Positions 12,979-53,216 of a stretch of 64,000 bases of DNA are shown piece after piece. The position numbers were made by a program, and so were the translations under genes. This stretch comes from Bacillota bacterium (GTDB lineage Bacteria > Bacillota > Sulfobacillia > JAJYWN01), in the NCBI GenBank assembly GCA_021791495.1, contig JAJYWN010000060.1:141591-205590 (forward strand), given 5' to 3'. The notes beneath the pieces are model-generated. The model did no database searches and had not been told where the DNA came from. It saw nothing but the letters and a program-made list of their open reading frames with translations. Within the stretch, counting starts at the first letter, position 1; every line of letters starts with the position of its first letter.

Positions 12979-13367
12979 GCTTGAACCCGGGAGCCTCCGA
13001 TGATTGGGGTTTGGCACAGCACGACCTGGTCCTGAACTGCGGTCCTGCCACATTAGGTACGCCTTGCGGCGGTATCTGCTACACCCGTTGGAGTCTCTCG
13101 ACCTTTCCGGGCAGTGGCTTTAGCCAGTACTGGAGCCTCACTTAACAAGGGAGCGGTATTCTGTTTTGCTTCCAGTGTCTGGACATTATACGAGGGTCCG
13201 CGGGCGAAGTTCCATAGGGTCTCGACTCTATTGCGTTTCCGCACCATCAGGGCGTCTACGCTACTTCCCTTGTGCCTGCCGTCAATCCATCAGCCCCGAC
13301 AAGGAAGCTAATTCCACTCCTGGAAAGGGATTCTCTTTGGTTCTCCCCTAATCTTTATCGGGAGGGC

Positions 13368-21918: not shown

Positions 21919-21999
21919 CCCTGGATCGGTTAGGTGGGAGGTGCGGGCTTCCCGGAATAGAAACTGTGGATAGGTCCCCACGATGGGAGGCAATCTGTG

Positions 22000-35506: not shown

Positions 35507-36623
35507 TGCTGCCGGCCGCCTCCTTTCCCGCGGCGGCGGCGTGCGGGCCTCTGTCCCGGGGCTTGCGCTCCGCCCAATAGCGGGCAAACCGGTCTTCGTA
35601 AACAGCGTAGCCGAGTACGAAGAAGATGACCAACGCCTGCATGACCGAAGCCAACATGGCCGGCACCTCGGCGGCCCGCTGCATGTTGTTGGCGCCCGTG
35701 GCCAGCGCCCCGAACAGAAGCGACGTCAGGATTACGGCGAGGGGGTTGCGCTTAGCAAGAAGCGCTACGGCGATGGCGCTGTAGCCATACCCCGGGGAGA
35801 AGTTGCTGTAGAGTTTCCATGTAACTCCCAATAGTTCCACGGCGCCCCCCATGCCGGCCAGACCGCCACTGATCGCCATGGCCAGGACCACATTACGTCG
35901 GACGTTGATCCCGGCGTACTCGGCGGCCAACGCGCCTGAGCCAACAGCGCGGATCTGGAAACCCAGGACCGTCTTGAAAATCAGGATGTAGGCGGCCACA
36001 GCCATCGCCAGACCGATGACCAGACCCAAGTGCAGCCTGGTGCCGGGCACTAACACGGGCAGCTTGGCGGCGTTTACGATCTCCGCCGTCTCCGGATAGA
36101 AGTGCCGCGGTTCTTGCAAGGGGCCCTTGATGATCCAGGAGACTATCTGAACCGCGATGGAGTTCATCATCACCGTCGTGACGATCTCCGAGGCCCCCAC
36201 CTTGGCTTTCAGGTATCCCGGTATCGCTCCGTACGCGCCGCCGGCCACGAAAGCCGCCGCCAAGAGCAGCGGGATCAGGATGAAGGAAGGAAGACCCGTG
36301 ATGGCCACGCCCAGCCAACTGACCGCCAAAGCCCCCATGTAGAACTGCCCTTCGGCACCGATGTTGAAGGAGCGGCTACGGAAGGCAATGGCCACTCCCA
36401 AGCCCGTAAATAGGTAAGGAGTGCTCTTCACCAGAGTCTCGGTGAAGTTGATGCCACTTCCAAAAGCCCCGTCGAGCAAGGCGGCGAAAGTTTGGACCGG
36501 GTTGAAACCGGCCGCGGCTACCACCACCGCGCCCGCCACGAAGGCGGATAGCACCGCCAATGAAGGGATGATGAGCTGCCGCGCGGCCGCAAGTACGCTA
36601 TCCAAATGCGGGCGAGCTTTCAC
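35499..36623 (-). CDS. ABC transporter permease (first permease)
   Basis: The GTG start overlaps the ATPase stop (GTGA). The protein is polytopic. Confidence 0.8.
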   Translation of the reverse strand: MKARPHLDSVLAAARQLIIPSLAVLSAFVAGAVVVAAAGFNPVQTFAALLDGAFGSGINFTETLVKSTPYLFTGLGVAIAFRSRSFNIGAEGQFYMGALAVSWLGVAITGLPSFILIPLLLAAAFVAGGAYGAIPGYLKAKVGASEIVTTVMMNSIAVQIVSWIIKGPLQEPRHFYPETAEIVNAAKLPVLVPGTRLHLGLVIGLAMAVAAYILIFKTVLGFQIRAVGSGALAAEYAGINVRRNVVLAMAISGGLAGMGGAVELLGVTWKLYSNFSPGYGYSAIAVALLAKRNPLAVILTSLLFGALATGANNMQRAAEVPAMLASVMQALVIFFVLGYAVYEDRFARYWAERKPRDRGPHAAAAGKEAAGSNA

Positions 36624-38170
36624 TGTTCGCCGCCCCCTCTCGGCCCAAGGGCGCTCAGCATGGTTTTGGCTCCGGTCATCAATTGCCCAAGGTCCTCCTC
36701 GCTGACGTCTGGCCATACCAGTCCGGTGACAGCCCCACGGTGCATGACCGCGATACGATCGCTGAGACCTTTTATCTCTTCCAGTTCGGATGACACCAGG
36801 AGGATGGCTTTCCCTTTCGCGCGTTCCTCCAGAAGCCTTCGGTGCACGTATTCCGTGGCGCCCACGTCCAGGCCGCGGGTGGGTTTCATGACCACCAGCA
36901 CCTTGGGCTCCCTGGATATCTCGCGCGCCAGGACCACCTTCTGTTGGTTGCCTCCGGACAGGGACGATGCCGGCGCGGAGGCCCCGCCGCCCGACCGAAT
37001 GTCGAAAGTCTGGATCATGCCGGCCGCGAACCGGTTCACCTGCGCCTCATCGATGAAGAAACCTCGACGGAAGGGAGCGGCGCGGTGTGATTCGAGGATA
37101 AGGTTCTCGGCGATGGAGAAGTCCATAATGAGGCCCCGGGTCTGCCGGTCTTCCGGTACCAGCGCCAGACCGGCGTCGATGGCCCGCGCCGGGCCCTTTC
37201 CCGTGATGTCGCGGCCGTCCAGGATGACCCGTCCGGAAGCCACAGGGGCGGTTCCCAGGATGGCCTCCACCAGTTCGTTCTGGCCGTTGCCGTCCACCCC
37301 CGCGATGCCCAGGACTTCTCCCCCCCAGACATCAAGGGATATGCCTGAACAGGCCTCTTTCCCTTCACGCCTGACTGTCAGCCCCTGTAACGAGAGAGTT
37401 GGCCCCGTGTAGCCGCCGGTGCGCGGGCTCGATGGAGCAGCCAGGTCCCGCCCGATCATCATTTTCGCCAGCTCTGCCGGGGAAGTGGCCGACGTCTCCA
37501 CCGTGCCCTGGACCTTGCCCAGCCGCAATACCGTGACGCGCTGACTTATCTCCATGACTTCGTTCAGCTTGTGGCTGATGAAGATGACCGACTTGCCTTC
37601 TCCTTGAAGGTGACGGATCACCCGGAAGAGGTCTCCGGTTTCCTGCGGCGTGAGCACGGCCGTGGGTTCGTCCAGAATTAGGATCTGAGCCCCGCGATAG
37701 AGGCTCTTTAGTATCTCTACCCGCTGCTGAAGGCCTACCGGCAGATCCCCGACCCGCGCGTCCGGATCAAGGTCGAAGTTATAGCGGTGCGAGAACTCCC
37801 GAATGGACGAGCGGAGCCGGGTCCGGGAAATGACCGCGCCGGTCTTCTTGCGCATACCGAGGACCACATTCTCCGCGACCGAGAAAGCAGGTATCAGCAT
37901 GAAGTGCTGATGGACCATGCCTACGCCCAAGTCGATAGCCTGGCGGGGCGACCGGAACTCGACCGGTCGCCCCCCCACCAGGATCTGTCCCTCATCCGGC
38001 CGCAGGAGGCCATAGAGGATGTTCATTAATGTCGTTTTTCCCGCGCCGTTTTCACCGAGTAGCGACAGGACCTCGCCCGGCTTGACTGTCAGGTCGATCT
38101 GGTCATTGGCGATCAGGGCGCCGAACCGCTTGGTGATGCCGCGGGTTTCAAGGGCGTACAGGGGTACCAA
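36620..38170 (-). CDS. ABC transporter ATP-binding protein with two fused ATPase domains (sugar/nucleoside type)
   Basis: Two Walker A/signature/Walker B sets are present (GENGAGKTT..LSGGNQQKV..LILDEP, and a second set). The start is TTG, with low confidence. Confidence 0.85.
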   Translation of the reverse strand: MVPLYALETRGITKRFGALIANDQIDLTVKPGEVLSLLGENGAGKTTLMNILYGLLRPDEGQILVGGRPVEFRSPRQAIDLGVGMVHQHFMLIPAFSVAENVVLGMRKKTGAVISRTRLRSSIREFSHRYNFDLDPDARVGDLPVGLQQRVEILKSLYRGAQILILDEPTAVLTPQETGDLFRVIRHLQGEGKSVIFISHKLNEVMEISQRVTVLRLGKVQGTVETSATSPAELAKMMIGRDLAAPSSPRTGGYTGPTLSLQGLTVRREGKEACSGISLDVWGGEVLGIAGVDGNGQNELVEAILGTAPVASGRVILDGRDITGKGPARAIDAGLALVPEDRQTRGLIMDFSIAENLILESHRAAPFRRGFFIDEAQVNRFAAGMIQTFDIRSGGGASAPASSLSGGNQQKVVLAREISREPKVLVVMKPTRGLDVGATEYVHRRLLEERAKGKAILLVSSELEEIKGLSDRIAVMHRGAVTGLVWPDVSEEDLGQLMTGAKTMLSALGPRGGGEQ

Positions 38171-38188
38171 CCTCCCGCGGAGCCGGCC

Positions 38189-39187
38189 TTAGTACGCTCC
38201 GATATTGATCTTGATCTTGCCGGCCTGGATATCCTTCAGGGCTTTGTCGTAGGCGTCCTTGGCTTCTTGGGGAATGGTCATCTTGTCGTTCCACACGAAT
38301 TTGACCACGTTATCTTTCGTCCCGACCCTGATCTCGCCCGGCTTCCATGTGCCGTCCTTGACCTGCTTGACGACTACACTGAAGGCGTTGGAGAAGTCAA
38401 TGTACCCGTCGGCGATAACCACATCGGGAGCATCCTTCGACCACTGTGAGTAGGCGCCGAAGATCTTCACGCCCTTCTTGGCGTTCTCCCGGACGGCCTG
38501 CAGAGCGCCCTGGCCGGCGGCGTTGGCGCTGACCCAGAAGATGTCGGCCCCGGAGTTGATCATGGTGATGGTGGCTTCCTTGGCCTTACCCACATCATCC
38601 TGAGTCCCGATGTAGGTCCGCAGTACCTTGACGCTGGGGTTGGTGTCTTTCACGCCCTGTTCGAAGCTGATCAGGGTCTTGGAGATGGCCGGCATTTCCT
38701 GGCTACCGATGGTCCCCACGACTCCGGTCTTGGTCATCTTCGCGGCGACCACGCCCATGAGATATGTCGCCTGCTCGAACTCGGTGTAGATGGGCGAGAC
38801 GTTGTCCATCACGGTCGTGCCGCCGCTGGTGATGAAGATGGTCTTCTTGAAGTCGGGCGCCACTCGCTTCGCGGCATCCTGGTAGTCATAGCTGTGGCCG
38901 AAAACAATGCGATAGCCCTTCTGGGCATAGTCGCGGAAGGCTTCCACGACATCGGAGGGCGACTTGATCTGCACATAGCTAACTTCCGCGCCGAAGTCGG
39001 TCTCGACCTTTTTGAGACCTTTGTATGCGGATTCGCTCCAACCGCCGTCGGTGATGGAGCCGGGCACCAGCAGGGCGATCTTCAGCTTGCCGGAGTTTCC
39101 CGTTTTCGCTCCGCAACCGGCGGTGGCGGTCACGATCACCAAAGTTAAGATAGCAATCCAGGTGAGGACGGGCCATTTCCTTCTCAC
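38189..39187 (-). CDS. BMP family (PnrA-like) ABC transporter substrate-binding lipoprotein
   Basis: The GTG start has an AAGGGGG RBS. The signal peptide plus lipobox reads LTLVIVTATAGCG. The body matches BMP-family substrate-binding proteins. Confidence 0.85.
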   Translation of the reverse strand: MRRKWPVLTWIAILTLVIVTATAGCGAKTGNSGKLKIALLVPGSITDGGWSESAYKGLKKVETDFGAEVSYVQIKSPSDVVEAFRDYAQKGYRIVFGHSYDYQDAAKRVAPDFKKTIFITSGGTTVMDNVSPIYTEFEQATYLMGVVAAKMTKTGVVGTIGSQEMPAISKTLISFEQGVKDTNPSVKVLRTYIGTQDDVGKAKEATITMINSGADIFWVSANAAGQGALQAVRENAKKGVKIFGAYSQWSKDAPDVVIADGYIDFSNAFSVVVKQVKDGTWKPGEIRVGTKDNVVKFVWNDKMTIPQEAKDAYDKALKDIQAGKIKINIGAY

Positions 39188-39302
39188 GATAGTACCCCCT
39201 TGTGAACTGTTTTGCGCTGGGAGCACCCCCCGGAAGGGGCATTCCCCGGTGTTGTCAACGGTTGATGCCTTGGGCGATAGGGACACTGGTTCTCTGGAAG
39301 GA

Positions 39303-40649
39303 TCAGCGGGTCAGCGTTTCTGCCGCGGAGGTGAGCTCCCGCAGCAGCGTCTCCTCGTCGATCCCGTTGACCACTCCTCCTTCCATGACCACACGACCGG
39401 CAATCACCGTTGTGTCGATGTTCCCTTCGGTAGACGACAGCACCAGCGATGAGACTGGATCCAACACTGGTGCCGACTTCGGCTTTAGAGGGTCATACAC
39501 GAAAAGGTCGGCCGCTTTGCCCACTTCCAAAGAACCGGTCACATCCCCAATTCCCAGCACGTCGGCGCCGCACTTGGTCGCCATTCTCAGAACGTCCACG
39601 GATGCCAGTACACTGGGGTCTTCCGCCGCCACCTTCTGAAGCAGAGCTGTCAACTTCATGGCCTCGATCATGTCTTGACCGTCGTTGGAGCCGGCTCCGT
39701 CGGTGGCCAGACCCACTCTCACCCCATGCCGCCATAGCTTGGCGATCGGTGCGATCCCCGAACCTAGTAGCATGTTACTGGCTGGGTTGTGACTGACGCC
39801 GACGTCAAACCGCCGGAGGAGATCCACGTCTTCATCCCGCAGATGCACCGCGTGCACCGCGAGGAAGTGTGCGTCCAGAAAGCCCAGGTCGGCCAGGAAA
39901 GGCACCGCCCGCCGGCCGAAACGTGCCAGGGTGGTCTCGTCGTCCCGCGGCGTTTCGCAAAGGTGCATCGTTACCGGCATGCCGTGGCTCCTCGCGAACT
40001 CCGCTGTCAGCCGCAACCCTTCATCAGTCAGGTTCCAGATGGCTGTGGGCGCCAGCCAGACGCGGAGGAGAGGGTTACCGGCGTGGTCGCGGGCCAGCCT
40101 CTCCACATCAAGGAGCACCTTGTCGATGGGTTCCACCAGACGGCGCTGGGCCTCGTCCCCATAGGCGCGGTCGGAGAATCCCCGCGCCAGGATCCCACGG
40201 AACCCGGTGTCGGAGAAGGCCCGGATGACGGCATCAGAGAGCCCCGGGCTGGTCTGAGCGTACATATAGTCGAGCACGGTGGTGACGCCGGAATGCATGG
40301 CCTCGACGCACCCTGCCATGGCGGCCAGGTAGCAAAGCTCTTCGTTCAGACGGGGAACCAGCGGGCGAACATGCTCCTCCAGCCAACCGACCAGGGACTT
40401 GTCCTTACCGAGCCCCTTTACGTAGACTTGGAACATGTGGGCATGCGTGTTTATCAGGCCGGGAAAGACGTACTTGCCAGATGCGTCAATCCGCCGGGAT
40501 GGGTTGTAGCGACCGTGTAACCGGTCGTCAGGTCCGATCGCCAGGATGATGCCGCGGCGCACGGCAATGCTTCCCGACCGGATCTGTGTGCCCAGGTCGT
40601 CCATGGTGATGATGTAGCCGTGTTCGATGAGAAGGTCTACTTCTTCCAT
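39303..40649 (-). CDS. Amidohydrolase-superfamily nucleobase/nucleoside deaminase (MtaD/SsnA/chlorohydrolase-like)
   Basis: PGLINTHAHMFQ is the metal-binding HxH block. The overall architecture is a TIM-barrel amidohydrolase. Confidence 0.85.
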   Translation of the reverse strand: MEEVDLLIEHGYIITMDDLGTQIRSGSIAVRRGIILAIGPDDRLHGRYNPSRRIDASGKYVFPGLINTHAHMFQVYVKGLGKDKSLVGWLEEHVRPLVPRLNEELCYLAAMAGCVEAMHSGVTTVLDYMYAQTSPGLSDAVIRAFSDTGFRGILARGFSDRAYGDEAQRRLVEPIDKVLLDVERLARDHAGNPLLRVWLAPTAIWNLTDEGLRLTAEFARSHGMPVTMHLCETPRDDETTLARFGRRAVPFLADLGFLDAHFLAVHAVHLRDEDVDLLRRFDVGVSHNPASNMLLGSGIAPIAKLWRHGVRVGLATDGAGSNDGQDMIEAMKLTALLQKVAAEDPSVLASVDVLRMATKCGADVLGIGDVTGSLEVGKAADLFVYDPLKPKSAPVLDPVSSLVLSSTEGNIDTTVIAGRVVMEGGVVNGIDEETLLRELTSAAETLTR

Positions 40650-41536
40650 CCGTTGGCCCTGCTCCCGAAATAGGTGGCCAGCAGGCTCTCGGTCTCTGTC
40701 ACGCGGTCCAGGGACCGGTCTTTCACCTTCGTGGTCACCTGGTACAGCAGGGCGTCGATCAAGGCCATGCAGGCGGCATAGGAGATGAACTCACCGGTGG
40801 TGCGAACGACGAATGTGCGATCGGCGGTCTGGGAAATGGGCGCGACGGCGCTGTCAGTGATGGCGATGACCTGACAACCCCGCTCCCTGGCAAAGCGCAT
40901 CACATCCAGAGTGAAGTTCCGGCTCATGAGGAAACTGGCTCCGATAATCAGGTCCTGCGGTCCCCAGAAACGCAGGTAGTCGAAGACGTCTCCGATGTCG
41001 GGGATGATCAGCCTGGCGTTACCCAGGATCTCGTTCAGAAAGGTGTACAGGACTAAGCCCGGCGCCACCGCACTGCGCAATCCCACGATGCCAATCTTCC
41101 CGGCCTTGACGATCATCTCCGCCGCCTGGTCGAGGTCAGCGCAGGTGACACCGGCCATCGAAGCCCGAATGTTCTCGATGTCCCGTTCAAAAACCAGCTG
41201 GCAACCGTCCACAGTCTTCGGGGCCTCGGACAGCGACTGACGAAGGCGTTCGGCAACCACAAGGCGGTTCCGGAGAATGTGTTGGCTGGCTTCCTGAAGT
41301 TCACGAAACCCCGCAAAGCCAATGTCGGTACAGAAACGAGTCACGACGGACTCGCTTATGCCCACATCCTTCGCGATCATGGCCGCGGAGTAGAAGGCAG
41401 CTTCCTCGGTGTTCCGAAGAATCCACTCCGCAATCCTGCGCTTGCCGGGACTGAGACCGGGGTAGGCCTCGCGGATCCGGGCATCAAGGTCAGGTTTCTG
41501 GACGCCATTCGAGGACGGGTGCCGAGGAGATTCCAT
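40637..41536 (-). CDS. MurR/RpiR family transcriptional regulator (HTH plus SIS domain)
   Basis: RRIAEWILRNTEEAAFYSAAMIAKDVGISESVVTRFC is followed by an SIS fold. Confidence 0.85.
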   Translation of the reverse strand: MESPRHPSSNGVQKPDLDARIREAYPGLSPGKRRIAEWILRNTEEAAFYSAAMIAKDVGISESVVTRFCTDIGFAGFRELQEASQHILRNRLVVAERLRQSLSEAPKTVDGCQLVFERDIENIRASMAGVTCADLDQAAEMIVKAGKIGIVGLRSAVAPGLVLYTFLNEILGNARLIIPDIGDVFDYLRFWGPQDLIIGASFLMSRNFTLDVMRFARERGCQVIAITDSAVAPISQTADRTFVVRTTGEFISYAACMALIDALLYQVTTKVKDRSLDRVTETESLLATYFGSRANGWKK

Positions 41537-41762: not shown

Positions 41763-41791
41763 TTGACAGCCCGCGAGTCAGGTGTTAGCAT
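41763..41791 (+). promoter_or_regulatory. Putative sigma-70 promoter (TTGACA, 17 bp, TAGCAT) driving the SAM riboswitch
   Basis: Read directly, about 20 nt upstream of the riboswitch P1. Confidence 0.35.
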
Positions 41792-41810
41792 TGTGGCAAC
41801 TTCATAGCAC

Positions 41811-41930
41811 CTCTTTCATCCAGAGGCGGCGGAGGGACAGGCCCGATGATGCCACGGCAACCACTCCCACATTCGGAGGACGGTGCCAATTCCTGCGGAT
41901 CGGCGACCACGGCGGTCCCAAAGATGAGAG
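41811..41930 (+). ncRNA. SAM-I riboswitch (S-box)
   Basis: CUCUUUCAUCcAGAGGCGGcGGAGGGAcaGGCCCGAUGAuGCCacGGCAACC...GGUGCCAAUUCCUGCgG...AAAGAUGAGAG matches the S-box consensus blocks. P1 is CUCUUUCAUC/GAUGAGAG. Confidence 0.9.
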
Positions 41931-41953
41931 TGAAGGTGTGTCGCGCCTGTCAG

Positions 41954-41986
41954 CGGCCCTTCATTCGAAGGGCCGTTTCCTTTTCG
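41954..41986 (+). terminator. Riboswitch expression-platform terminator
   Basis: CGGCCCUUC auuc GAAGGGCCG followed by UUUCCUUUUCG. Confidence 0.65.
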
Positions 41987-42044
41987 CCCGTCCGGTTCGG
42001 CGGAGGGCGGCCGGACAGAAACACACGTTTCGGGGGGATTTGCT

Positions 42045-43214
42045 TTGAGCGTCAAGACCTTCGAGGAGATTAACGAGAAGATCCGCTCCAAGAAGGCGGT
42101 GGTCGTCACCGCCGAAGAGATCATCGGCATCGTCGAGGAGAAAGGCGCCGCCGAAGCGGCCAAGCAGGTAGACGTGGTCACGACGGCCACCTTCGGCCCC
42201 ATGTGCTCTTCGGGTGCCTTCCTGAACTTCGGCCACGCCGACCCGCCCATCCGCATGAACTACATCCGCCTGAACGATGTGCCGGCCTCTGGCGGTCTGG
42301 CGGCGGTGGACACCTACATCGGCGCCACGGAGGCTTCCGAGACCCGTGGCATGGAATACGGCGGAGCCCACGTCATCGAAGACCTCATCGCCGGCAAGAA
42401 GGTACACCTGCGCGCTACCTCCTACGGCACCGACTGCTACCCGCGGACGGAGATCGACACCTTCATCACCAAGGATTCCATCAACGAAGCCTACCTCTAC
42501 AACCCGAGGAACGCTTACCAGAACTACGCCGCCGCCACCAACGGTTCGGACCGGACCATCTACACGTACATGGGCGTGCTCCTGCCCCGCTTCCGGAACG
42601 TGACCTACAGCACGGCCGGAGAGCTTTCGCCGCTCCTGAACGATCCGTACCTGCGCACCATCGGCATTGGAACCCGCATCTTCCTGGGCGGCGCCCAAGG
42701 CTACGTGACCTGGAACGGCACGCAGCATAACCCGTCGCGCCTGCGCTCCGAAAACGGCGTGCCCATGCAGAACGCCGCCACCCTGGCGGTGGCGGGCGAC
42801 CTGAAGCAGATGAGCACCCGGTACATCCGCGCCGCCACCTTCGAGAAGTACGGCGTCTCCATGTTCGTCGGCATCGGCATTCCGATCCCCATCCTTGATG
42901 AGGAGATGCTCCGCTACGTTTCGGTCCGGAACCGCGACATCTATACCTTCATCTACGACTACAGCATCCCGTCGCGTTCGCGCCCGCCCCTGACCAAGGT
43001 CAGCTACGAGGAGCTTCAGAGCGGCACGGTGCGGCTGAACGACCGCGATGTGCCCACGGCGCCGCTATCCAGCCTGAGGGTGGCACGGGAGATCGCGGGG
43101 GTGTTGAAGGAATGGATCGCGGCCGGCCAGTTTCTGCTGACCCAGCCGGTGGCCCCGCTGCCGTCGACCGCCAGTCCGAAGGGGCTGGACGTCGTGGGAG
43201 GTGACGAGAGATGA
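42045..43214 (+). CDS. DUF39 (COG1900) homocysteine-biosynthesis protein (sulfide-dependent route from aspartate semialdehyde)
   Basis: Full-length DUF39 architecture. The TTG start has a GGGGGGA RBS. Confidence 0.85.
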   Translation: MSVKTFEEINEKIRSKKAVVVTAEEIIGIVEEKGAAEAAKQVDVVTTATFGPMCSSGAFLNFGHADPPIRMNYIRLNDVPASGGLAAVDTYIGATEASETRGMEYGGAHVIEDLIAGKKVHLRATSYGTDCYPRTEIDTFITKDSINEAYLYNPRNAYQNYAAATNGSDRTIYTYMGVLLPRFRNVTYSTAGELSPLLNDPYLRTIGIGTRIFLGGAQGYVTWNGTQHNPSRLRSENGVPMQNAATLAVAGDLKQMSTRYIRAATFEKYGVSMFVGIGIPIPILDEEMLRYVSVRNRDIYTFIYDYSIPSRSRPPLTKVSYEELQSGTVRLNDRDVPTAPLSSLRVAREIAGVLKEWIAAGQFLLTQPVAPLPSTASPKGLDVVGGDER

Positions 43215-43666
43215 AGCCCGAGCTGAAATCAGCGACTAAGCGCATCAAGGTCTTCCTTCGTTTTCCGCCGGGCCGCGCCGGCCGCCCTGTCACCTACCAC
43301 CTGGTCAAGGATTTCGACCTGAAGATCAACATCCTGCGGGCCGAGGTCTCGGTGAACAAGGGCGAGCTGGTGCTGGACATCGAAGGCCGCTCGGAGGACA
43401 TCGAGGGCGCCGCTCGTTTCTGCGGCGAGGAGGGCGTGGAGTTCCACACCATCGATAACGCCGTGGAGTGGAACCGCGACCGGTGCGTGCATTGCGGCGC
43501 CTGCACGGCGGTCTGCCCATCGGGGGCTCTGTCCCTGGACAGACGTGATTGGAGTCTGGTTTTCAGCGCCGCCGACTGCTACGCCTGCAACGTTTGCCTG
43601 AAGGCGTGCCCGGTGCGGGCCTTGTCCCCCGGTTTCGACGGCGACCCCATCGCGGCCACAGACTGA
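43211..43666 (+). CDS. NIL domain plus 2x[4Fe-4S] ferredoxin protein, partner of DUF39
   Basis: CVHCGACTAVCPSG and CYACNVCLKACP are present. It overlaps the DUF39 gene by 4 nt. Confidence 0.8.
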   Translation: MKPELKSATKRIKVFLRFPPGRAGRPVTYHLVKDFDLKINILRAEVSVNKGELVLDIEGRSEDIEGAARFCGEEGVEFHTIDNAVEWNRDRCVHCGACTAVCPSGALSLDRRDWSLVFSAADCYACNVCLKACPVRALSPGFDGDPIAATD

Positions 43667-43709
43667 GGGCTGGCGGCCACCCGCCGACCATGGGCAAAGC
43701 AGGGGCTGA

Positions 43710-44441
43710 GTGACGGAATTGTACGAGCCACGGACATACCGAGAGCTATTCAAGGGCGAGAATCTCGTCTTCTTCAACTGCACCCTAAAAGAGACCGACC
43801 TCCAGATCGGCGCCCACCGTTCCCTGGCTTTCGAAGCCATGGAGCAGGTGTGCGAACTGCGCCTGCAGCTGGACGACTACATCCGCTCCTATCCGGAATT
43901 CCTGACCAGCCTGGTGCCGGTCCCCGCCACACCGGGTGCGCCGGCCATCGTCCGGCGCATGTGCTGGGCGGGGTGGCAGGCGCATGTGGGCCCCATGGCG
44001 GCGGTGGCGGGTGCGGTGGGTGAGTTTGTTGGACGCAAGCTCCTTGAGTTCTCCCCCGAGGTCATCGTGGAAAACGGCGGCGACATTTTCCTGAAGTCCG
44101 ATGTCCCGCGGCGGATCGGGATCTATGCCGGTCAGTCGCCCTTAAGCCTGAAAGTGGCCCTGGAGATCGCCCCGGAAGACACGCCGCTGGGCGTGTGCAC
44201 CTCTGCCGCGACCGTCGGCCCTTCGCTCAGCTTCGGCCGGACCGACGCCACGGTTATCGTAGCCAAGGACACCGCCCTGGCCGACGCCGCCGCCACGGCC
44301 GTGGGCAACCGGGTCAAGGTCCCGGCCGACTTGGAGGCGGGGCTTCACCTAGCGTCCCAGATTCCGGGCGTCTTGGGGGCGGTCATTGTCATCGGCGACA
44401 AGATGGGTGCCTGGGGTCAGGTCAAGCTCGCAAGGCTCTAA
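43710..44441 (+). CDS. UPF0280/ApbE-like family protein
   Basis: The 243-aa protein from a GTG start has an ApbE-like C-terminal region. It is co-oriented with the two upstream genes. Confidence 0.55.
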   Translation: MTELYEPRTYRELFKGENLVFFNCTLKETDLQIGAHRSLAFEAMEQVCELRLQLDDYIRSYPEFLTSLVPVPATPGAPAIVRRMCWAGWQAHVGPMAAVAGAVGEFVGRKLLEFSPEVIVENGGDIFLKSDVPRRIGIYAGQSPLSLKVALEIAPEDTPLGVCTSAATVGPSLSFGRTDATVIVAKDTALADAAATAVGNRVKVPADLEAGLHLASQIPGVLGAVIVIGDKMGAWGQVKLARL

Positions 44442-44589: not shown

Positions 44590-45327
44590 CTAAAGCCTCA
44601 TATACTTGAAAACCCTCTCGGGGATCATCCGAATGCCCAACATGATCCAATACCAGAAGCCAGGCACGTAGAATACGTCTCTTCCGGACTGGATCCCGCG
44701 CACAACTCTCTCTGCAACCCGTTCAGGGGTAGCGACCAATGGTCCCGGACGGACAACCCCGTAGGTCATCTTGGTATCTACAACGCCGAGGAGAACTGTC
44801 ACGACCCGGACCTGTGATCGGGCCATACGGCTTCGGAGACCTTGCAGGAAAGTGACCAATGCAGCTTTAGCTGAGCCATACATGTAGTTGCTCTGTCGCC
44901 CCCGGAGTGCCGCGACAGATGCCAGCGCGCAAATGAAACCTGCATCACGTTCTCCCAGATAACTGGCGGCAAGGTGAAGCACAGAGACATAGGACGAATA
45001 GTTCACGTCGATTACCTTTCGGGCTTCCTTTATACTGCTCTCCGCCTCATTCTGGCTACCCATGTAGCCGTGGCATACGATGACCCCAGTCAAACTAACA
45101 CCCCATGGCTCATCCTCAAACAGAAGATGGTGGGATTCGTACGCGTCGGCCTCAAACGCGCGTACGGCAGTCCGCACACCAAACCGGATGGCCAGATCCG
45201 CCGCAAGGCATTTCAAGTCTGCCGTATCCCTACCAGCCAGGACAAGGTCCCACTTCCGCCGGGCGAACGAAACCGCGATCGCCCGGGCAATCCCAGATGT
45301 CGCTCCCACTATCAGAACGCTGCCCAC
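44590..45327 (-). CDS. SDR family oxidoreductase; DprE2-like by context (follows DprE1 with a 1-nt stop/start overlap)
   Basis: VLIVGATSGIARAIAVSFARR is a TGxxxGxG-type NAD(P)-binding motif. The protein is 245 aa. Confidence 0.75.
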   Translation of the reverse strand: MGSVLIVGATSGIARAIAVSFARRKWDLVLAGRDTADLKCLAADLAIRFGVRTAVRAFEADAYESHHLLFEDEPWGVSLTGVIVCHGYMGSQNEAESSIKEARKVIDVNYSSYVSVLHLAASYLGERDAGFICALASVAALRGRQSNYMYGSAKAALVTFLQGLRSRMARSQVRVVTVLLGVVDTKMTYGVVRPGPLVATPERVAERVVRGIQSGRDVFYVPGFWYWIMLGIRMIPERVFKYMRL

Positions 45328-46727
45328 TATGCCTCCATGATTCCAAGCCTTCGTGCCATCGACGAAGAGAATAGATGGTTCGGGTCTACATGGCTCTTGA
45401 TCTCCTGAAACTGCCCCAGGCGCGGATACATCTCGCGAAACACATCGCGTTTCAGCACGGAATCCTTTGCGAGGTAGACTCGCCCGCCGTTTTCCAGGAC
45501 AACCCCGTCCAGGCGGTTCAGAAGCGCCTCCACTTCCGGTCCGCGAAACGGAAGGTCCAGAGCCAGCGTAAAACCACGCTTCGGAAAACTGAGGAGGCCC
45601 TGCCCCTCCGGACCAAGACTCTTCAGAACAGCGAGGAAGGAGGATGCTCTCGCTGCCGAAAGCATCTCTAGGATGCGGGTCATCCCGCGGAGACTGGTTT
45701 CCGGAGGCAGAACAACCTGGTACTGAACGAATCCACTCCGTCCATACATGCGGTTCCAGTCCAGAATGGCGTCAAGCGGGTAGAAGAATGACTCAAGATG
45801 AACCAGTCGCTGGCCACTACCGTGTCTTCTGAAGTAGACCTCGTTGAATGCCCCGATAGTTGCGGAGTTCAAAGTTCCTGCAGGCAGATAGAAAGGGATC
45901 CGCAGGAACGGGTTCCGGCTGGGTTTCAGCGTCTCGGGAGCGGGATCCGGAGCCGGGTTTCCAAGCATCAGCACGGAACGGCCCAGGCTTCTGCCACCCT
46001 TGAGGCAGTCAATCCAGGCGACAGAGTACTGATACTCCTTCTCCGTAGTCGTGAACATCTCCAACGCCTCATCCAGGTTCCTTGCTCGTAGATACTTGAC
46101 CGAAAACAGAGCCGAGTGGATGCGGACTAAGCGTAGACGGACTGTCAGGATGAACCCTGTCAGGCCGATCCCGCCGACGGTCGCCCAGAATAGGTACGGG
46201 TGGGACTCGCGGGAACAGGTGAGGATTTCACCAGAGGCCAACATCAACCGAAAACTGATGATGCAGTTGGAAAAGGCACCGTCTCGATGGTGGTTCTTGC
46301 CGTGAACATCGTTAGCCACAGCGCCACCCACCGTGACGTGCTTGGTTCCCGGCGTAACGGGCAAGAAGAAACCCCGCGGCAAGAACGTCTGTAGGATGTG
46401 GGCCAGGCTGACGCCGGCCTCGCATTCCAGAACTCCCGTTTCCGGGTCAAAGGACAAGAACCGGTTCAGGTGGGTCAGGAGGACCGTGGCGCCGTCACCG
46501 TTCACCGCTGAGTCGCCATAGCTCCTCCCGAGACCGCGTGCCAAGAGGGAGGAGATCCGGTCATAGGTCAAGAGCTGCTCGGTCTCAGTGGCACTTTCAG
46601 GACGGTAGATCTCGGAGGTCTGCCGCGAGTGGTTTCCCCACCCGGAGATCTCGGCTGTGACAGATCTCAGCACCGGCAACACTCCCTTTTGCACAGTGTT
46701 AGGCATATACGAGACAAATGACGGCAA
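45327..46727 (-). CDS. dprE1: Decaprenylphosphoryl-beta-D-ribose 2'-oxidase-like FAD-dependent oxidoreductase (DprE1 family)
   Basis: The DprE1 signature is VTPGTKHVTVGGAVANDVHGKNHH, with an FAD_binding_4 N-terminus (RGLGRSYGDSA). The start is probably at an internal ATG near 46706. Confidence 0.8.
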   Translation of the reverse strand: MPSFVSYMPNTVQKGVLPVLRSVTAEISGWGNHSRQTSEIYRPESATETEQLLTYDRISSLLARGLGRSYGDSAVNGDGATVLLTHLNRFLSFDPETGVLECEAGVSLAHILQTFLPRGFFLPVTPGTKHVTVGGAVANDVHGKNHHRDGAFSNCIISFRLMLASGEILTCSRESHPYLFWATVGGIGLTGFILTVRLRLVRIHSALFSVKYLRARNLDEALEMFTTTEKEYQYSVAWIDCLKGGRSLGRSVLMLGNPAPDPAPETLKPSRNPFLRIPFYLPAGTLNSATIGAFNEVYFRRHGSGQRLVHLESFFYPLDAILDWNRMYGRSGFVQYQVVLPPETSLRGMTRILEMLSAARASSFLAVLKSLGPEGQGLLSFPKRGFTLALDLPFRGPEVEALLNRLDGVVLENGGRVYLAKDSVLKRDVFREMYPRLGQFQEIKSHVDPNHLFSSSMARRLGIMEA

Positions 46728-47586
46728 CGCCCCAGAGCAACAGGTTAGTTAGCAAAGGCCGGTCGGTGAGGATCGCTTCTTCAGGACTACCGCTCAGGTC
46801 GGTGCGATGCACGAGATAGAGATACCGGAAAAGCCCGTAGATCACGAACGGAATCGTCCACATCATGTTGTAGTTGTGGGTGGCGAAGAAGGTATACAGG
46901 GAATATGCCGTAATCGTGCTGCCGCTTAGGATGCTGAGGAACTGGTCAAGCAACTCGATGGAGTAGGAGTCCAGGACTTTACGGTGGTCACTGCCGGTTG
47001 TCAAGAGCTCTGTGCGCCGTTTGCCGAAGGCCAGGAAAAGAGAGAGAAGCAGCGTGCACACGAACAGCCAAGGGGAGATGGCAACGTTCACCGCTACGGC
47101 GCCTGCCCATGCGCGCATGATAAACCCGAACGCAACAATCATCGCATCTACAATGAAAACATGCTTCAGATGGAACGAGTAAGCCAGATTAACAAAAAAG
47201 TAGATTGCTGTGACGGCCGCAAAACGCCATGACAGAAAGGCCGCCAGAGGAACCCACACAACCGTCAAAAGAACGGCAAAGAGCAAAGCCACCCTAGGAC
47301 TGACGGCTCCTGAAGGAATCGGGCGCTTTCGCTTCTCCGGATGGAGCCGGTCCCGATCTGCATCCGCAATATCGTTGATCACGTAGACCGAGCTTGATAC
47401 GAGACAGAAGGCCAGAAAGCCCTGAAGACTGGGCGCCAGAGTCTGAAACAGAACGCCGGCGAACACCGGACCGGCAAGAAGGAACCCGTTCTTGATCCAT
47501 TGCTTCGGGCGCATTAGGCGCACTAACCCGAGCCAAGGATTGTGGAAGCGACTTATTGTGTCGGAAGTACCCTCAGGGTCGCACAC
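46699..47586 (-). CDS. UbiA-family decaprenyl-phosphate 5-phosphoribosyltransferase-like prenyltransferase (DPPR synthase, Rv3806c-type)
   Basis: LMRPKQWIKNGFLLAGPVFAG..NDIADADRDRLHPEKRKRPIPSG. The protein is polytopic. Confidence 0.75.
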   Translation of the reverse strand: MCDPEGTSDTISRFHNPWLGLVRLMRPKQWIKNGFLLAGPVFAGVLFQTLAPSLQGFLAFCLVSSSVYVINDIADADRDRLHPEKRKRPIPSGAVSPRVALLFAVLLTVVWVPLAAFLSWRFAAVTAIYFFVNLAYSFHLKHVFIVDAMIVAFGFIMRAWAGAVAVNVAISPWLFVCTLLLSLFLAFGKRRTELLTTGSDHRKVLDSYSIELLDQFLSILSGSTITAYSLYTFFATHNYNMMWTIPFVIYGLFRYLYLVHRTDLSGSPEEAILTDRPLLTNLLLWGVAVICLVYA

Positions 47587-47825
47587 CGAATCGCTGCCCC
47601 CTCAATGCCCATGGAGCAATAAGAAACTGGATGTGACGCCGGCAGCCATCTCATGAGACGGCAGTTCGGTCCCGACTCCTTTTCACCTTGCGCCTGGATT
47701 CCCCTTCAGGGTGATTCACAGGCCGGCAGACGGGTGGTGGGAAGGGATACGGTTGGAGGTCAGTTGAATCGGTTTGGCGCGCGGTCCAAACAAGTTTCGG
47801 ATGAGTCCGCGTCGAATACTCCGGT

Positions 47826-50420
47826 ATGAACGAAGACCGGTTGAAATCGGGTCCCCCCAACGGGTCAGGGCCTTTCTTTCGGGAACTCGCGGTTGCCGCG
47901 TCACTGACCGGCCTTACCATTGCCATTGCTCTGTGGCCCATCCTCTCGGCCCCCAACTCCTCGTACCCGGACACCGTGGACGCCCTGGGCCACATGGCCA
48001 AGATCAAGTACATCGCTGATTCGCTGCGGCAGTGGCACATCCCGTCCTGGTTCCCATACTGGTACTCGGGGTCGGCAGTGACCCAATACTACCCGCCGCT
48101 CTCCTACTGGCTCTTGATCCCCATCCAGTTGTTGTTCAGCAACGTGATGATCACGTTCAAGGCCTTTCTCTTCGCGTCAGTGTTCGTTGGCTCCATCGGG
48201 GTATGGTGCTTTAACTGGAGGTTTGTCGGGCCGCGCACCGGGGTAGTCGCCGCCGTCATATATGCGATCCAACCGTATCTTCTTCGCTCACTCGTCCTCC
48301 ACGGGCTGATCGCTCAGGGGCCGATCTACGCCCTTTCTCCCTGGCTCTTGGTCTTTACGATGCTTTTCCTTGAGCGCCCCGGATGGAAGCGTTGGTTGGC
48401 CGTGTGCGTCACCGTCATGCTTCTCGTGCTTTCCCACGCGATGCACGCTTTTCTCGTTGCCATTTTCACGGGACTCGTAGTCTTGGTCTTGTGCAGTCGA
48501 TGGAAAGCCGGCTTTCAGTACCTGGTGAGCTGGGCAGTGGCGGTGGCAGGGGGAGCGGGTCTGGCGGCCTTTTGGTGGGTGCCCGGAGTCACGCAACTGG
48601 ATACCCCTGGTATCCCGTTCCTTATGCCGGAAGTCGCCGAAACATTCACTGCCAATGTGTCCTGGTTTCTGCCGCAAGCACGCCGTGGTGGTGGCTTCTA
48701 CTTTAGCCTCTTGGTTCTTTTGCTCGCCGCGGCTGCCTTGTGGCCGAAGGTCTGGCCGAACAAAGACCGGCGATTGCTCATCGCTCTTGAGGTCTCTTCC
48801 GTCGGGAGCGTGGTGCTTTCTTTCGGCAAAGCGATTCCTCTTTTCCGGTTCATTCCAATGGCGTCCAGTCTTGTCCCCGGCCGCAGCCTAAGCTACGCGT
48901 CATTAGCGACCGCTCTCTTGTCGGCCGTCACCATCACCCAACTAGGCCTGGCCTCCAGGCGGACTGGAAATCGTCTTGCGGTGGGGTTCTTGGTCATTCT
49001 CGCGCTATGGGACCTGAACCCGTTCGCAATCGGCATGGCGACGGACCCGTATCTGAGCCTGCAAAAGAGCCTGGATGTCGTGTCCCCGGCAGAGAAGTCC
49101 TTCGACCGTGGAAGATTCACTTGGATCACCCCGGCCGGCTCCGAGATGACGTACTTCCCCATGATCCATAGCCTGAACATTGCCGAAGGCTGGAATATCG
49201 AAGGTACGCTACATAACCGTGCCATATGGCAACACAACATCGCCATAGCCGTCCAACAAGACGATTACGTGATCGATAACCTCCTGCAGTGGAACGTGCG
49301 TTCCCTGTTCGTGGATGAAGACTACCCTCAGCTCGTAACTGCCCTGAAGGCCCATGGCTTCCGGGAAGTGTCTAGGAACGGCATCACCGTCACCCTGGTC
49401 AGCCTCCGCCCCTCCACCTATTTCATGAAGGCTGACCGCGACGGAGTGGCCATCGGCGCGGCCGCCCGAAACCTGGTCATGTACTTCCCATGGCTTATCG
49501 AGGGCCGCTCGCCGACCTTGGAGGACTATGCCGACGCAGATCTGGCCGGCTTTCGTCTTATCTACCTGGCCGAGCCGAAGGTGAGGAATCCCCAAGCCTT
49601 CGAGGCCGCCCTCCGCAAGCTGGCGTTAGCCGGCAAGACCGTCATCGTCGAATACGGCCGCTCGCGGATCTGGTCGGTGCTGGGAACGTACGCGTATTGG
49701 GACAAGATCACCCAGGGAATCCTGGAGCCGGTCCCAGGCAGCCCTTTCAAGGCAACCGTCCCCTTGCAGCCTGACCCCTTGGGCCAGTCGCCCGTAGTGG
49801 CCGGGCTCGACGGCGTGTGGTACGAGGCCGAGATCGAAGACAGCGCTCTGCGTCCCGGTGTCGGCTACAAAACCGTCGAGAACGGTCGCGTCTTCTTCGT
49901 CAACGACGCCCTCAGCCAGTCGCTGGGCTCCCCCTACGGCAGCCCCATCAAGGAAGCGCTGGGCACCTTGATGGACCTGGTATCGCCCAATAAGGAACTG
50001 GCGCCCGCGCCCTTCCCCATCACCGGTGCCCAGTGGTCGTACAACGGGTGCACGTTCCATTACACCTCCGACAAACCCGACACCATCTGGGTATCCGTGA
50101 CCTACAGCTCCCGCTGGAAGGCCACGGTGGATGGCACCCAGATACCGGTGCGCAACCTGTCAAATCTCATCGCCCTGGATGTTCCACAAGGGGAGCATGA
50201 GGTGGTGCTGGAATACGGCATGAGTTGGGTAGCCTGGGCCGGCGTCGCTCTAAGCGGTTTCGCAGCCCTTCTGGTCCTTATGATCTGCGTCTACTTCGGG
50301 CGTCTCGGCGCCGGCGCCGACTCCGTTCAGAGGTGGTTCGACCGCTGGATCACGACCTGGGCCAACCGTGACGAACACGAGTCGCGGTCCCCCGTGGCTC
50401 GCAATGGAAAGAGGGGTTAG
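47826..50420 (+). CDS. 864-aa polytopic membrane protein with a C-terminal extracytoplasmic domain; candidate GT-C glycosyltransferase using a polyprenyl-phospho-sugar donor (inferred from membrane topology and from position beside the donor-pathway genes, not from any recognised motif)
   Basis: About 13 N-terminal transmembrane segments are followed by a 450-aa soluble region. It is divergent from the DPPR/DprE1/DprE2 operon and followed by the GT2 gene. Only the family is unassigned. Confidence 0.7.
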   Translation: MNEDRLKSGPPNGSGPFFRELAVAASLTGLTIAIALWPILSAPNSSYPDTVDALGHMAKIKYIADSLRQWHIPSWFPYWYSGSAVTQYYPPLSYWLLIPIQLLFSNVMITFKAFLFASVFVGSIGVWCFNWRFVGPRTGVVAAVIYAIQPYLLRSLVLHGLIAQGPIYALSPWLLVFTMLFLERPGWKRWLAVCVTVMLLVLSHAMHAFLVAIFTGLVVLVLCSRWKAGFQYLVSWAVAVAGGAGLAAFWWVPGVTQLDTPGIPFLMPEVAETFTANVSWFLPQARRGGGFYFSLLVLLLAAAALWPKVWPNKDRRLLIALEVSSVGSVVLSFGKAIPLFRFIPMASSLVPGRSLSYASLATALLSAVTITQLGLASRRTGNRLAVGFLVILALWDLNPFAIGMATDPYLSLQKSLDVVSPAEKSFDRGRFTWITPAGSEMTYFPMIHSLNIAEGWNIEGTLHNRAIWQHNIAIAVQQDDYVIDNLLQWNVRSLFVDEDYPQLVTALKAHGFREVSRNGITVTLVSLRPSTYFMKADRDGVAIGAAARNLVMYFPWLIEGRSPTLEDYADADLAGFRLIYLAEPKVRNPQAFEAALRKLALAGKTVIVEYGRSRIWSVLGTYAYWDKITQGILEPVPGSPFKATVPLQPDPLGQSPVVAGLDGVWYEAEIEDSALRPGVGYKTVENGRVFFVNDALSQSLGSPYGSPIKEALGTLMDLVSPNKELAPAPFPITGAQWSYNGCTFHYTSDKPDTIWVSVTYSSRWKATVDGTQIPVRNLSNLIALDVPQGEHEVVLEYGMSWVAWAGVALSGFAALLVLMICVYFGRLGAGADSVQRWFDRWITTWANRDEHESRSPVARNGKRG

Positions 50421-50446
50421 TCTTCATCGTAGTCCTAGTCCTGCCC

Positions 50447-51238
50447 ATGTACAACGAAGAGGAATCCATCCCACTCCTCCGCGCCGACCTGGCGCGGGTC
50501 CAGGGTGTCTTAGTCTCCCACATCGTTGCTGTGGACGATGGCAGTACCGACCGAACCCTCGAACTCCTGGAGGAATGGGCCCTGGACGAGCCGCGCCTGC
50601 GCGTGGTCTCTTACCACCCCAACCGTGGCCTACCCGGCGCCATCCTGGCCGGGTTCCGCGAGGCGGTGGAACTGGGAGCGGGCACCGGAGCGGAGGCTCA
50701 CGGAGGCGAAGACGTCGTCGTCACCATGGACTCCGACGCCAGCCACCCCATCTCCTTGATCCCCGAAATGGTCAGGCGGCTCGCCGCCGGCGCAGACATC
50801 GTTATCGCCTCGCGCCATGCCCCTGGGGCTGCCCAGTTCGGCCTGGCCTGGTACCGTCAGGTGTTCAGCTGGGGCGCCTCGCTCCTCATGCGCCTAGCCT
50901 ATCCCCTGCGCGGCGTACGCGATTACTCGACGAACTACCGGGCCTACCGCGGCGCCCTTCTCCTTGAAGCCCTGAACCGCAGCCCCTCCGGCCGCCTGGC
51001 CGCGGCGCGAGACTTCTCCGGCGTCGTGGAGATGCTTCTCCGCCTGTGCAGCCTGGGCCCGAAGGTGGCAGAGGTGCCCCTGGAACTCCATTACGAACGG
51101 AAGAAATCGCCCAGCAAGGCACAAGTAACGCGGATGATCACCGGCTACTTCCGGCTGGCCCTGAAGAAGAAGACCCGCTCCGCGACGGGTGTGTGCCTTC
51201 CCCTCCTCGACGGGGAGGGTAGCAAGGCTGACAGATAG
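50447..51238 (+). CDS. GT2 polyprenyl-phosphate sugar synthase (Ppm1/GtrB/ArnC-like); the first ATG lies after the beta1 strand
   Basis: PMYNEEESIP..VAVDDGSTDRT...VVTMDSDASHP are the DxD/DAD-type motifs. The upstream in-frame sequence LVFIVVLVLP looks like the missing beta1 strand but has no canonical start codon. Confidence 0.8.
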   Translation: MYNEEESIPLLRADLARVQGVLVSHIVAVDDGSTDRTLELLEEWALDEPRLRVVSYHPNRGLPGAILAGFREAVELGAGTGAEAHGGEDVVVTMDSDASHPISLIPEMVRRLAAGADIVIASRHAPGAAQFGLAWYRQVFSWGASLLMRLAYPLRGVRDYSTNYRAYRGALLLEALNRSPSGRLAAARDFSGVVEMLLRLCSLGPKVAEVPLELHYERKKSPSKAQVTRMITGYFRLALKKKTRSATGVCLPLLDGEGSKADR

Positions 51239-51272
51239 CGGGGTTGCCTGATAGCGTACCCGATAGCTGGAG

Positions 51273-51635
51273 CTACCTGATGGCGAGAATCACGCCTACC
51301 AAAATGAGTCCAATCCCCGCGACCCTGGCCAAACCCACCGTTTCACCAAGAAAGGCCCAGGAAAGAACCGGTACGAAGGCGTAGGATAGGGCGATCATGG
51401 GCTGGGCCCGTGACAGGTCCATCCGCGACAGAACACCCAGCCACAACATCATGCTGGAGGCGAACAGGACCACCCCGCCGATGATGGCGGGCTGTTGGGC
51501 CACCTTGAGGACGGTGGCCGCCCATTCGCCGCCCCCGTACCGTACGCCCCCCATCCGGTTAACGCCGATTTTCAGGAGAAACTGCCCCACACTCCCTAAA
51601 AGGACAGACAACAAAGCCGTGAGTAGCGCGCTCAT
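51273..51635 (-). CDS. ArnE/ArnF-like small EamA/SMR-type transporter, a putative lipid-linked sugar flippase subunit
   Basis: The 120-aa four-TM protein has LLSVLLGSVGQFLLKIG and MDLSRAQPMIALSYAFVPVLSWAFLGE, which align to the ArnE pattern. Confidence 0.65.
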   Translation of the reverse strand: MSALLTALLSVLLGSVGQFLLKIGVNRMGGVRYGGGEWAATVLKVAQQPAIIGGVVLFASSMMLWLGVLSRMDLSRAQPMIALSYAFVPVLSWAFLGETVGLARVAGIGLILVGVILAIR

Positions 51636-51661
51636 TTGGTCCCCCAGTTGCCTCTTTCCGC

Positions 51662-53212: not shown

Positions 53213-53216
53213 GCCG

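Follow-up and report, generated by a model that had tools for sequence, protein, structure and literature searches.

The DNA analysed here (i.e. the window) is a stretch of 64,000 nucleotides (nt) from a Bacillota bacterium (GenBank assembly GCA_021791495.1, contig JAJYWN010000060.1, positions 141,591 to 205,590 of the forward strand). The subject of this study is an operon of the window, in which a promoter, an aptamer of the SAM-I (S-box) class of S-adenosylmethionine (SAM) riboswitches and a terminator precede three co-oriented genes. These genes encode a DUF39 protein (COG1900/HcyBio), a ferredoxin with a NIL domain (NIL-ferredoxin) and a UPF0280 protein (COG2122). The coordinates of all features are collected in Table 1. 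The chemistry of the pathway and the genetic need for all three genes are taken from the literature; the identity and covariation of the aptamer, the terminator and its conservation, the identities of the genes, their conserved order and the recurrence of the riboswitch were established in the present analysis.

The SAM-I leader

A SAM/S-box aptamer upstream of the DUF39 gene was identified by cmscan with Rfam 15. The match to family RF00162 had 76.0 bits (gathering score 44.4; E = 4.6e-16) and spanned model positions 1-108 of 108 (i.e. the full length); it was one of two matches above the gathering score in the whole window. Our own covariance model scored the same RNA at 116 bits. An earlier note on this DNA, made from the letters alone, had described S-box sequence blocks followed by a terminator. 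Both were borne out: the blocks AGAGGCGG, GGAGGGAC, GGCCCGAUGA, GGCAACC, GGUGCCAAUUCCUGC and AAAGAUGAGAG were all found by direct reading within 41822-41930, the significance of the RF00162 match was confirmed and a hairpin was located at 41952-41977. In helix P1, CUUUCAUC (41813-41820) pairs with GAUGAGAG (41923-41930). Covariation was examined for 31 pairs in five helices of 38 related aptamers, with an alignment that was fitted to the model and whose counts are biased toward the structure; 92.8% of cells were paired as compared to 35-42% in slid controls. Both sides had changed in 16 pairs and in 156 cells, and the observed covariation score was reached by 0 of 500 shuffles. The P1-P4 helices of the SAM-I leaders are convincingly backed by these compensatory changes.

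SAM is, judging from the aptamer sequence, the probable ligand of the window RNA. Spermidine is bound by rare RNAs that match SAM-I models but differ from SAM-I in J1/2 and P3-loop nucleotides (PMC10853860), and the aptamer might be a specificity variant of this type for another ligand (e.g. spermidine, as in the variants reported in 2023, or S-adenosylhomocysteine). The J1/2 (AGAG), P3 internal-loop (GGCAACC ... GGUGCCAAUUCC) and P1 U-A blocks of the window RNA, however, agreed with the RF00162 consensus in a block-level comparison, and the genes under control belong to a methionine and not to a polyamine pathway. A change of ligand is very unlikely, and both the agreement with the consensus and the neighbouring genes led us to reject the spermidine variant.

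The putative promoter consists of TTGACA (41763-41768), a 17-nt spacer and TAGCAT (41786-41791) with an upstream TG (i.e. an extended -10), and was the sole sigma-70-like promoter found by consensus scan in the 3.2-kb region scanned. Its first base is also the first base of the region described in the earlier note. Transcription is predicted from the sequence to start near 41798-41800. The hairpin of the terminator has a stem of AGCGGCCCUUC and GAAGGGCCGUU with the loop AUUC, and is followed on its 3' side by TCCTTTTC (given also as UCCUUUUC), the U-rich tail being UCCUUUUCG. This hairpin (i.e. AGCGGCCCUUC-AUUC-GAAGGGCCGUU) was dominant in all folds of the leader. Additionally, 29 of 30 SAM-I-bearing DUF39 leaders (the window and 29 further loci) contained a hairpin and a U-run in the interval from aptamer to start codon. 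The predicted antiterminator is a 9-bp helix between GAGUGAAGG (41928-41936) and CCUUCAUUC (41958-41966). Its 5' strand opens with the 3 nt that close the 3' strand of P1, and the opposite strand (3') consists of the terminator's 5' arm and loop. In constrained folding of the same 71-nt segment, the enforced antiterminator had an energy of -25.8 kcal/mol and the terminator fold one of -28.2 kcal/mol. As read from these sequences, the leader would contain an expression platform in which terminator and antiterminator are mutually exclusive. The exact antiterminator pairing is a product of the folding model and is put forward as the probable one; because the overlap with P1 is short, the antiterminator step of the switch is one that we infer.

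The riboswitch could also act chiefly on translation or mRNA stability and not on transcription termination. The U-tract (UCCUUUUCG) has interruptions, and intrinsic terminators can be weak in a GC-rich genome such as this one (63%). The terminator, however, ends ~60 nt before the DUF39 start codon and clear of the ribosome-binding site, which is GGGGGG at 42032-42037 (7 nt before the start), and hairpin-plus-U-run terminators recur in nearly all of the homologous leaders, as given above. An action of this type is therefore unlikely, and attenuation of transcription is preferred.

The three gene products

The window DUF39 protein has only two cysteines (i.e. C54 and C131), both of which were 100% conserved in 81 sequences. 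By sequence, the product would be the catalytic subunit of L-ASST (for L-aspartate-semialdehyde sulfurtransferase). An activity that forms homocysteine from aspartate semialdehyde and sulfide would be supported by the context (i.e. SAM-I control and metF-metH operons) and by the literature. The ATG of the NIL-ferredoxin gene shares bases with the DUF39 stop codon (ATGA), a 4-nt overlap of the genes that suggests translational coupling, and the motif CxxCxxCxxxCP occurs twice in the NIL-ferredoxin (residues 92 and 123). The placing of COG1900 (DUF39) and NIL-4Fe4S genes 3' of the S-box by the earlier note was thus upheld by the matches to PF01837, PF09383 and PF00037, and its assignment of both genes to the homocysteine route from aspartate semialdehyde and sulfide accords with the gene families and with published work (PMC5764234, PMC4045070, PMC12068725).

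As the COG1900 family includes MMP16, a coenzyme M synthase (PMC12068725), the DUF39 protein might be a paralogue for another aldehyde (e.g. an MMP16-type enzyme converting sulfoacetaldehyde to coenzyme M), and a partial match to TIGR03287 of 141.1 bits was obtained. This score is, however, far under the cutoff set for TIGR03287 (363.95), the ferredoxin is unfused and forms a NIL protein of its own as in L-ASST, and the SAM-I riboswitch and the co-transcription with metF and metH in relatives indicate methionine synthesis. Coenzyme M is not expected in Bacillota. A different substrate of this type is highly improbable, and an MMP16-like coenzyme M function was excluded by the TIGR03287 score and the architecture.

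Two starts are possible for the UPF0280 gene, with GTG at 43710 giving a product of 243 amino acids (aa) and TTG at 43719 one of 240 aa. The latter may be the true start, as 240 aa is the usual length of homologues and the resulting N-terminus (MYEPRTYR) is that of the consensus. There are at least 7,982 homologues, which are assigned to PF27030 and named 'UPF0280 family / ApbE superfamily'; the closest was 91% identical, and the nearest named ones were from Bacillota metagenome-assembled genomes (MAGs). The NCBIfam name for the COG2122 models is still 'hypothetical protein'. A local Pfam search at E <= 0.001 gave no family, and hence no match to ApbE (PF02424). One cysteine is invariant in the family (i.e. 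C163 in GxCTS), as are the motifs GPMA and ENGGD. A PDB sequence search returned 2O34, a structural-genomics structure of D. vulgaris DVU1097 (E = 5.9e-42), and nothing significant beyond it. An AlphaFold model (pLDDT 90.3, pTM 0.88) was compared by Foldseek with this structure (template-modelling score (TM) 0.84, 38% identity) and with Ftp, ApbE and FmnB (E = 1e-7 to 7e-5, query-normalised TM 0.48-0.64). The model of UPF0280 has the overall fold of the ApbE/Ftp flavin transferases (Foldseek probability 1.00, TM 0.55-0.64), but is ~80 residues shorter and only 10-16% identical. As modelled, UPF0280 is ApbE-like in fold only, the family-level test for ApbE having been negative. The invariant Cys163, unlike ApbE/Ftp, would suit sulfur chemistry.

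The earlier note had presented the UPF0280 protein as an uncharacterised third component, for example for flavin or persulfide handling. A co-oriented third gene whose product has an ApbE-like fold was indeed found; its newness did not stand, since COG2122 is already the published third gene of the pathway (PMC4045070, PMC5764234). Flavin handling is disfavoured, as COG2122 is a distant relative of ApbE whose homology stops short of the flavin-binding region (PMC5764234). A 203-aa open reading frame (ORF) at 43229-43840 on the - strand, opposite the junction of the NIL-ferredoxin and UPF0280 genes, matched no family. The strand across from it is conserved coding sequence, and the ORF is treated as a shadow ORF, the most likely product of high GC content.

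Table 1. Features of the operon and of the gene cluster downstream of it, with window positions.
Feature	Position	Strand	Basis and details
Sigma-70-type promoter	41763..41791	+	Consensus scan, 10/12 matches; putative function
SAM-I (S-box) aptamer	41813..41930	+	RF00162, own covariance model, covariation in 38 leaders
Predicted antiterminator	41928..41966	+	Constrained folding; putative
Intrinsic terminator	41952..41986	+	Terminator scan, RNA folding, equivalents in homologous leaders
DUF39/COG1900/HcyBio gene	42045..43214	+	389 aa, TTG start; PF01837 531.6 bits, profile 1-349 of 349
NIL + 2x[4Fe-4S] ferredoxin gene	43211..43666	+	151 aa, MA1822-type electron-supplying subunit; PF09383 NIL, PF00037 Fer4
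UPF0280/COG2122 gene	43710..44441	+	NF003323 (PRK04334) 291.1 bits vs cutoff 271
DprE2-like SDR	44590-45327		
DprE1-like FAD oxidase	45327-46727		456 bits, just under 500 cutoff
Decaprenyl-phosphate phosphoribosyltransferase	46699-47586		Above cutoff
Two large PTPS_related membrane proteins	47826-50420 and 54519-58028		Latter with N-terminal PTPS domain
Two GT2 glycosyltransferases	within 44590-58028		

Recurrence of the operon and of its SAM-I control

The arrangement was surveyed in 80 loci with 60-84% identity of DUF39, drawn from one genome per GTDB species (mostly Bacillota, some Actinomycetota and a few others). Gene order was determined by tblastn, and SAM-I aptamers were sought with our own covariance model, for which six aptamers served as input and an Rfam run on 11 loci as validation. 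A NIL-ferredoxin partner was found in 75 loci, and DUF39, NIL-ferredoxin and UPF0280 followed one another in this order on one strand in 61. UPF0280 was divergent and upstream in eight loci, all from Actinomycetota MAGs. A SAM-I aptamer was located 78-235 nt upstream of DUF39 in 29 loci, all of which (29/29) had the three-gene order, and 1-5.5 kb upstream, at the head of a longer operon, in five further loci. The pathway is thus under SAM-I in about 34 of the 80 sampled species.

The link between UPF0280 and DUF39 was also examined in the reciprocal direction. Starting from UPF0280 in metagenome contigs, DUF39 and NIL-ferredoxin were immediately upstream in 28 of 43 testable loci, as compared to linkage in 69 of 80 loci when starting from DUF39. 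The link between the two genes is strong, not obligate. SAM-I was present in only three loci of the reciprocal sample, indicating that the riboswitch link is lineage-restricted.

At one locus (L010, 1220-8058), a single SAM-I heads metF (encoding methylenetetrahydrofolate reductase), a metH without the activation domain, a gene for a RACo-type corrinoid reductive activase, DUF39, NIL-ferredoxin and UPF0280. This six-gene operon, in which the metF, metH and RACo genes were confirmed by Pfam, ties the three genes to methionine synthesis. Similar spacing was observed at loci L012 and L004, the latter also having ORFs of similar sizes (i.e. the intervening genes are judged by spacing and size only). 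The RACo gene of L010 may substitute for the missing activation domain of MetH. Two other loci (L022, 5050-5964; L024, 5095-5961) were the only ones with a 304-aa ORF between SAM-I and DUF39. This ORF is 78% identical between the two, matched no Pfam or NCBIfam family and is presumably SAM-repressed too.

Other signals were noted around DUF39 in the sampled loci. An alternative riboswitch was sought in an Actinomycetota intergenic region (L025:5400-6100), where no Rfam family was detected at E <= 1, and no structured leader was apparent in an alignment of eight Actinomycetota DUF39 upstream regions (L025, L029, L034, L035, L040, L041, L055 and L074). A promoter-like motif of the TTGACA type, TTGAAA-N17-TATTAT, is conserved in these eight regions close to the DUF39 start codon. 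They also contain a short conserved upstream box, TAxATTATAAAGCAG, which may be the site of a protein regulator, and the other strand probably carries a small gene. Three Clostridium-like loci have a second SAM-I, oppositely oriented and a few kb downstream of the DUF39 operon (L019, 12353-12465 (-); L043, 6847-6959 (-); L064, 6378-6488 (-)). A Clostridiales-2 small RNA (RF02937, 62.6 bits) is present at L013 (5019-5098 (+)), ~900 nt upstream of a DUF39 gene without SAM-I.

The earlier note had held SAM control of this route in a bacterium to be little documented. An explicit link between SAM-I and DUF39 was not found in the literature searched, from which key S-box-regulon and Methanosarcina papers were outside coverage, so that an earlier mention is possible. 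The word 'riboswitch' is absent from the pathway papers PMC5764234, PMC4045070 and PMC12068725, and the family names are absent from the supplements of the RNA-regulon survey of Sun et al. (RegPrecise). The control is not special to this genome, as its recurrence in 34 of 80 species demonstrates. None of the riboswitch class, the pathway or the set of three genes is new, and the window is a further example of a recurrent Bacillota arrangement.

Proposed regulation and the role of UPF0280

The three gene families have been linked to methionine synthesis in several organisms. DUF39 is needed for homocysteine synthesis in D. alaskensis, and its orthologues are 'often adjacent to COG2122' and a ferredoxin (Kuehl et al. 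2014, PMC4045070). Mutants of D. vulgaris in DUF39, NIL/ferredoxin and COG2122 are methionine auxotrophs, homoserine not being an intermediate (Price 2018, PMC5764234). The same bacterial three-gene pathway, genetically needed for methionine prototrophy, is represented in D. vulgaris Miyazaki by DvMF_1464, DvMF_0262 and DvMF_0044; the Desulfovibrio genes are dispersed, as their locus tags suggest, and the papers on this pathway (PMC5764234, PMC4045070) describe no riboswitch control of DUF39. Dehalococcoides DET0921-DET0919 has also been cited as a DUF39 pathway (PMC5764234). As of 2017, MetaCyc and KEGG reportedly did not contain the DUF39 route, and its annotation in UniProt was wrong (PMC5764234). 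In M. acetivorans, MA1821/MA1822 were named L-ASST and MA1715 a sulfur-trafficking protein in a 2025 paper (PMC12068725), and these proteins belong to the same three families as those of the window (i.e. COG1900/HcyBio, NIL-ferredoxin and COG2122). The Cys54 that is essential in MA1821 (PMC12068725) would be the equivalent of C54 in the window protein, the equivalence being by residue number and not by alignment. All three genes lie in one operon in the window. MA1715 is, going by M. acetivorans gene numbering, presumably unlinked to MA1821-22.

With these genes under a SAM-I leader, the locus is very probably an operon for making homocysteine without homoserine, which SAM represses by attenuation of transcription. 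Transcription would begin ~15 nt upstream of the canonical SAM-I aptamer. When SAM is low, the 3' end of P1 and the next bases (41928-41936) would pair with 41958-41966, so that the terminator would be blocked and the three genes would be read. When SAM is high, P1 and the four-way junction would be locked and the antiterminator lost; the GC-rich hairpin at 41952-41977 and the U-tract would then end transcription, turning the operon off. Of the products, DUF39 would transfer sulfur to L-aspartate semialdehyde by means of Cys54 and Cys131, and the NIL-2x[4Fe-4S] ferredoxin would supply reducing electrons. UPF0280, with its ApbE-like fold and invariant Cys, would most probably deliver or activate sulfide for DUF39 in a persulfide relay. 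We infer this last role because the invariant C163 and the two invariant DUF39 cysteines fit a sulfur relay; a role of COG2122 in persulfide formation was proposed by Rauch and colleagues (as cited in PMC5764234).

The predicted switch resembles the yitJ/metE-type SAM-I leaders of B. subtilis (RF00162), with the same four-helix aptamer and core nucleotides, OFF logic by competition of terminator and antiterminator, and a methionine regulon. It differs from these classical leaders in controlling DUF39, NIL-ferredoxin and COG2122 and not metA/metX-metY/metB-metC or metE/metH. A second difference is among several points that weigh against the operon as proposed. In textbook S-boxes, the entire P1 3' strand is shared with the antiterminator, whereas the two overlap by just 3 nt in the window, and coupling of ligand binding to termination is weaker on paper than in those leaders. 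A weaker alternative pairing, of GAUGAG with UUCAUU, is also possible. A Pfam search of essentially all ORFs of >= 90 aa in the 64 kb found no metY, metB, metH, metE, metK or other methionine gene, and a view of this length cannot tell if the DUF39 route is the sole homocysteine source of the organism. The remaining points concern the third gene: UPF0280 was absent from the fetched flank of 10 of 80 DUF39 loci, 15 of 43 testable UPF0280 loci had no DUF39 nearby, and high sulfide reportedly rescues a Methanosarcina mutant in COG2122 (PMC5764234). The incomplete linkage is more in keeping with a broader role in sulfur trafficking than with a dedicated subunit.

The Desulfovibrio DUF39 protein lacks the SAM-sensing CBS domain of archaeal MJ0100, and was speculated to be without SAM feedback (Kuehl et al. 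2014, PMC4045070). An archaeal locus in our sample (L079, 5995-8582; uncultured archaeon) encodes a HcyBio protein of 501 aa with two C-terminal CBS domains, followed by NIL-ferredoxin and UPF0280, and no riboswitch was found on this three-gene locus. In contrast to the archaeal proteins, whose C-terminal CBS domains are reported to sense SAM, the window DUF39 protein is without CBS and under a riboswitch; the DUF39 proteins of L001 and L025 also have no CBS domain. As the bacterial DUF39 proteins that were checked lack CBS, the riboswitch would supply SAM feedback at the RNA level. That feedback in Bacillota would sit in the mRNA leader is a reasonable evolutionary reading. Contrary to the Desulfovibrio speculation, bacteria without the archaeal CBS domain are not necessarily free of SAM feedback on the DUF39 route.

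A further-reaching proposal is made tentatively, as one that is quite possible. SAM-I in Bacillota may have taken over the feedback that archaea build in as a C-terminal CBS pair, and UPF0280 may be a dedicated, Cys163-dependent subunit of the bacterial homocysteine synthase that delivers sulfide or persulfide. A dedicated subunit is suggested because UPF0280 is inside the directly SAM-repressed unit in 29 of 29 loci. The chief live alternative is a general sulfide-assimilation or sulfur-trafficking factor that serves other acceptors too and is co-transcribed here for convenience, which we consider possible if somewhat doubtful. Such a factor would account for the 15 UPF0280 loci without nearby DUF39 and for the position of UPF0280 outside the operon in the eight Actinomycetota loci. 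In the same direction point the rescue of MA1715 mutants by high sulfide, cysteine or homocysteine (reported in PMC5764234), the proposal that COG2122 acts on SepCysS too (PMC5764234) and the term 'sulfur trafficking protein' for MA1715 (PMC12068725). Against it stand the consistent position of UPF0280 within the SAM-repressed unit wherever SAM-I is directly upstream, and the D. vulgaris data, in which the COG2122 mutant was methionine-rescued and its fitness correlated with that of DUF39 at r = 0.98 over 170 experiments (PMC5764234). If true, a dedicated UPF0280 subunit would give a regulon-based handle on the biochemical role of COG2122. The recurrence of the SAM-I control independently confirms, at the regulon level, that DUF39, NIL-ferredoxin and COG2122 are a single SAM-repressed unit for methionine synthesis in many Bacillota, and the leaders and operons offer tractable systems for COG2122 function.

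Remaining features of the window

The operon is flanked upstream by a divergent cluster of RpiR, amidohydrolase and ABC transporter genes and downstream by a convergent DprE2/DprE1-like cluster. The upstream cluster (34571-41536 (-), an operon divergent from the riboswitch promoter) encodes an RpiR/SIS regulator, a TRZ/ATZ-family amidohydrolase, a Bmp-type binding protein, an ABC ATPase and two permeases. The best NCBIfam matches of the amidohydrolase include 5'-deoxyadenosine deaminase and methylthioadenosine/S-adenosylhomocysteine deaminase, all below cutoff, and a link to the salvage of SAM by-products is possible on this sequence evidence. The downstream cluster (44590-58028) is like the decaprenyl-phospho-arabinose pathway of actinobacteria; the genome itself has its nearest relatives among Bacillota MAGs.

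An M-box (RF00380, 77.6 bits) was detected at 12988-13156 (-), upstream of genes for an ABC ATPase (~11921-13051) and an ABC-2 permease (11106-11924) and not of the classical MgtE, MgtA or CorA. These transporter genes are followed by a gene for a DUF134 + Nitro_FeMo-Co protein (10249-11022). Additionally, the 64 kb contain three paralogous genes for peptidases of the M3/oligoendopeptidase-F type, at 21997-23787, 23936-25744 and 58170-59969.

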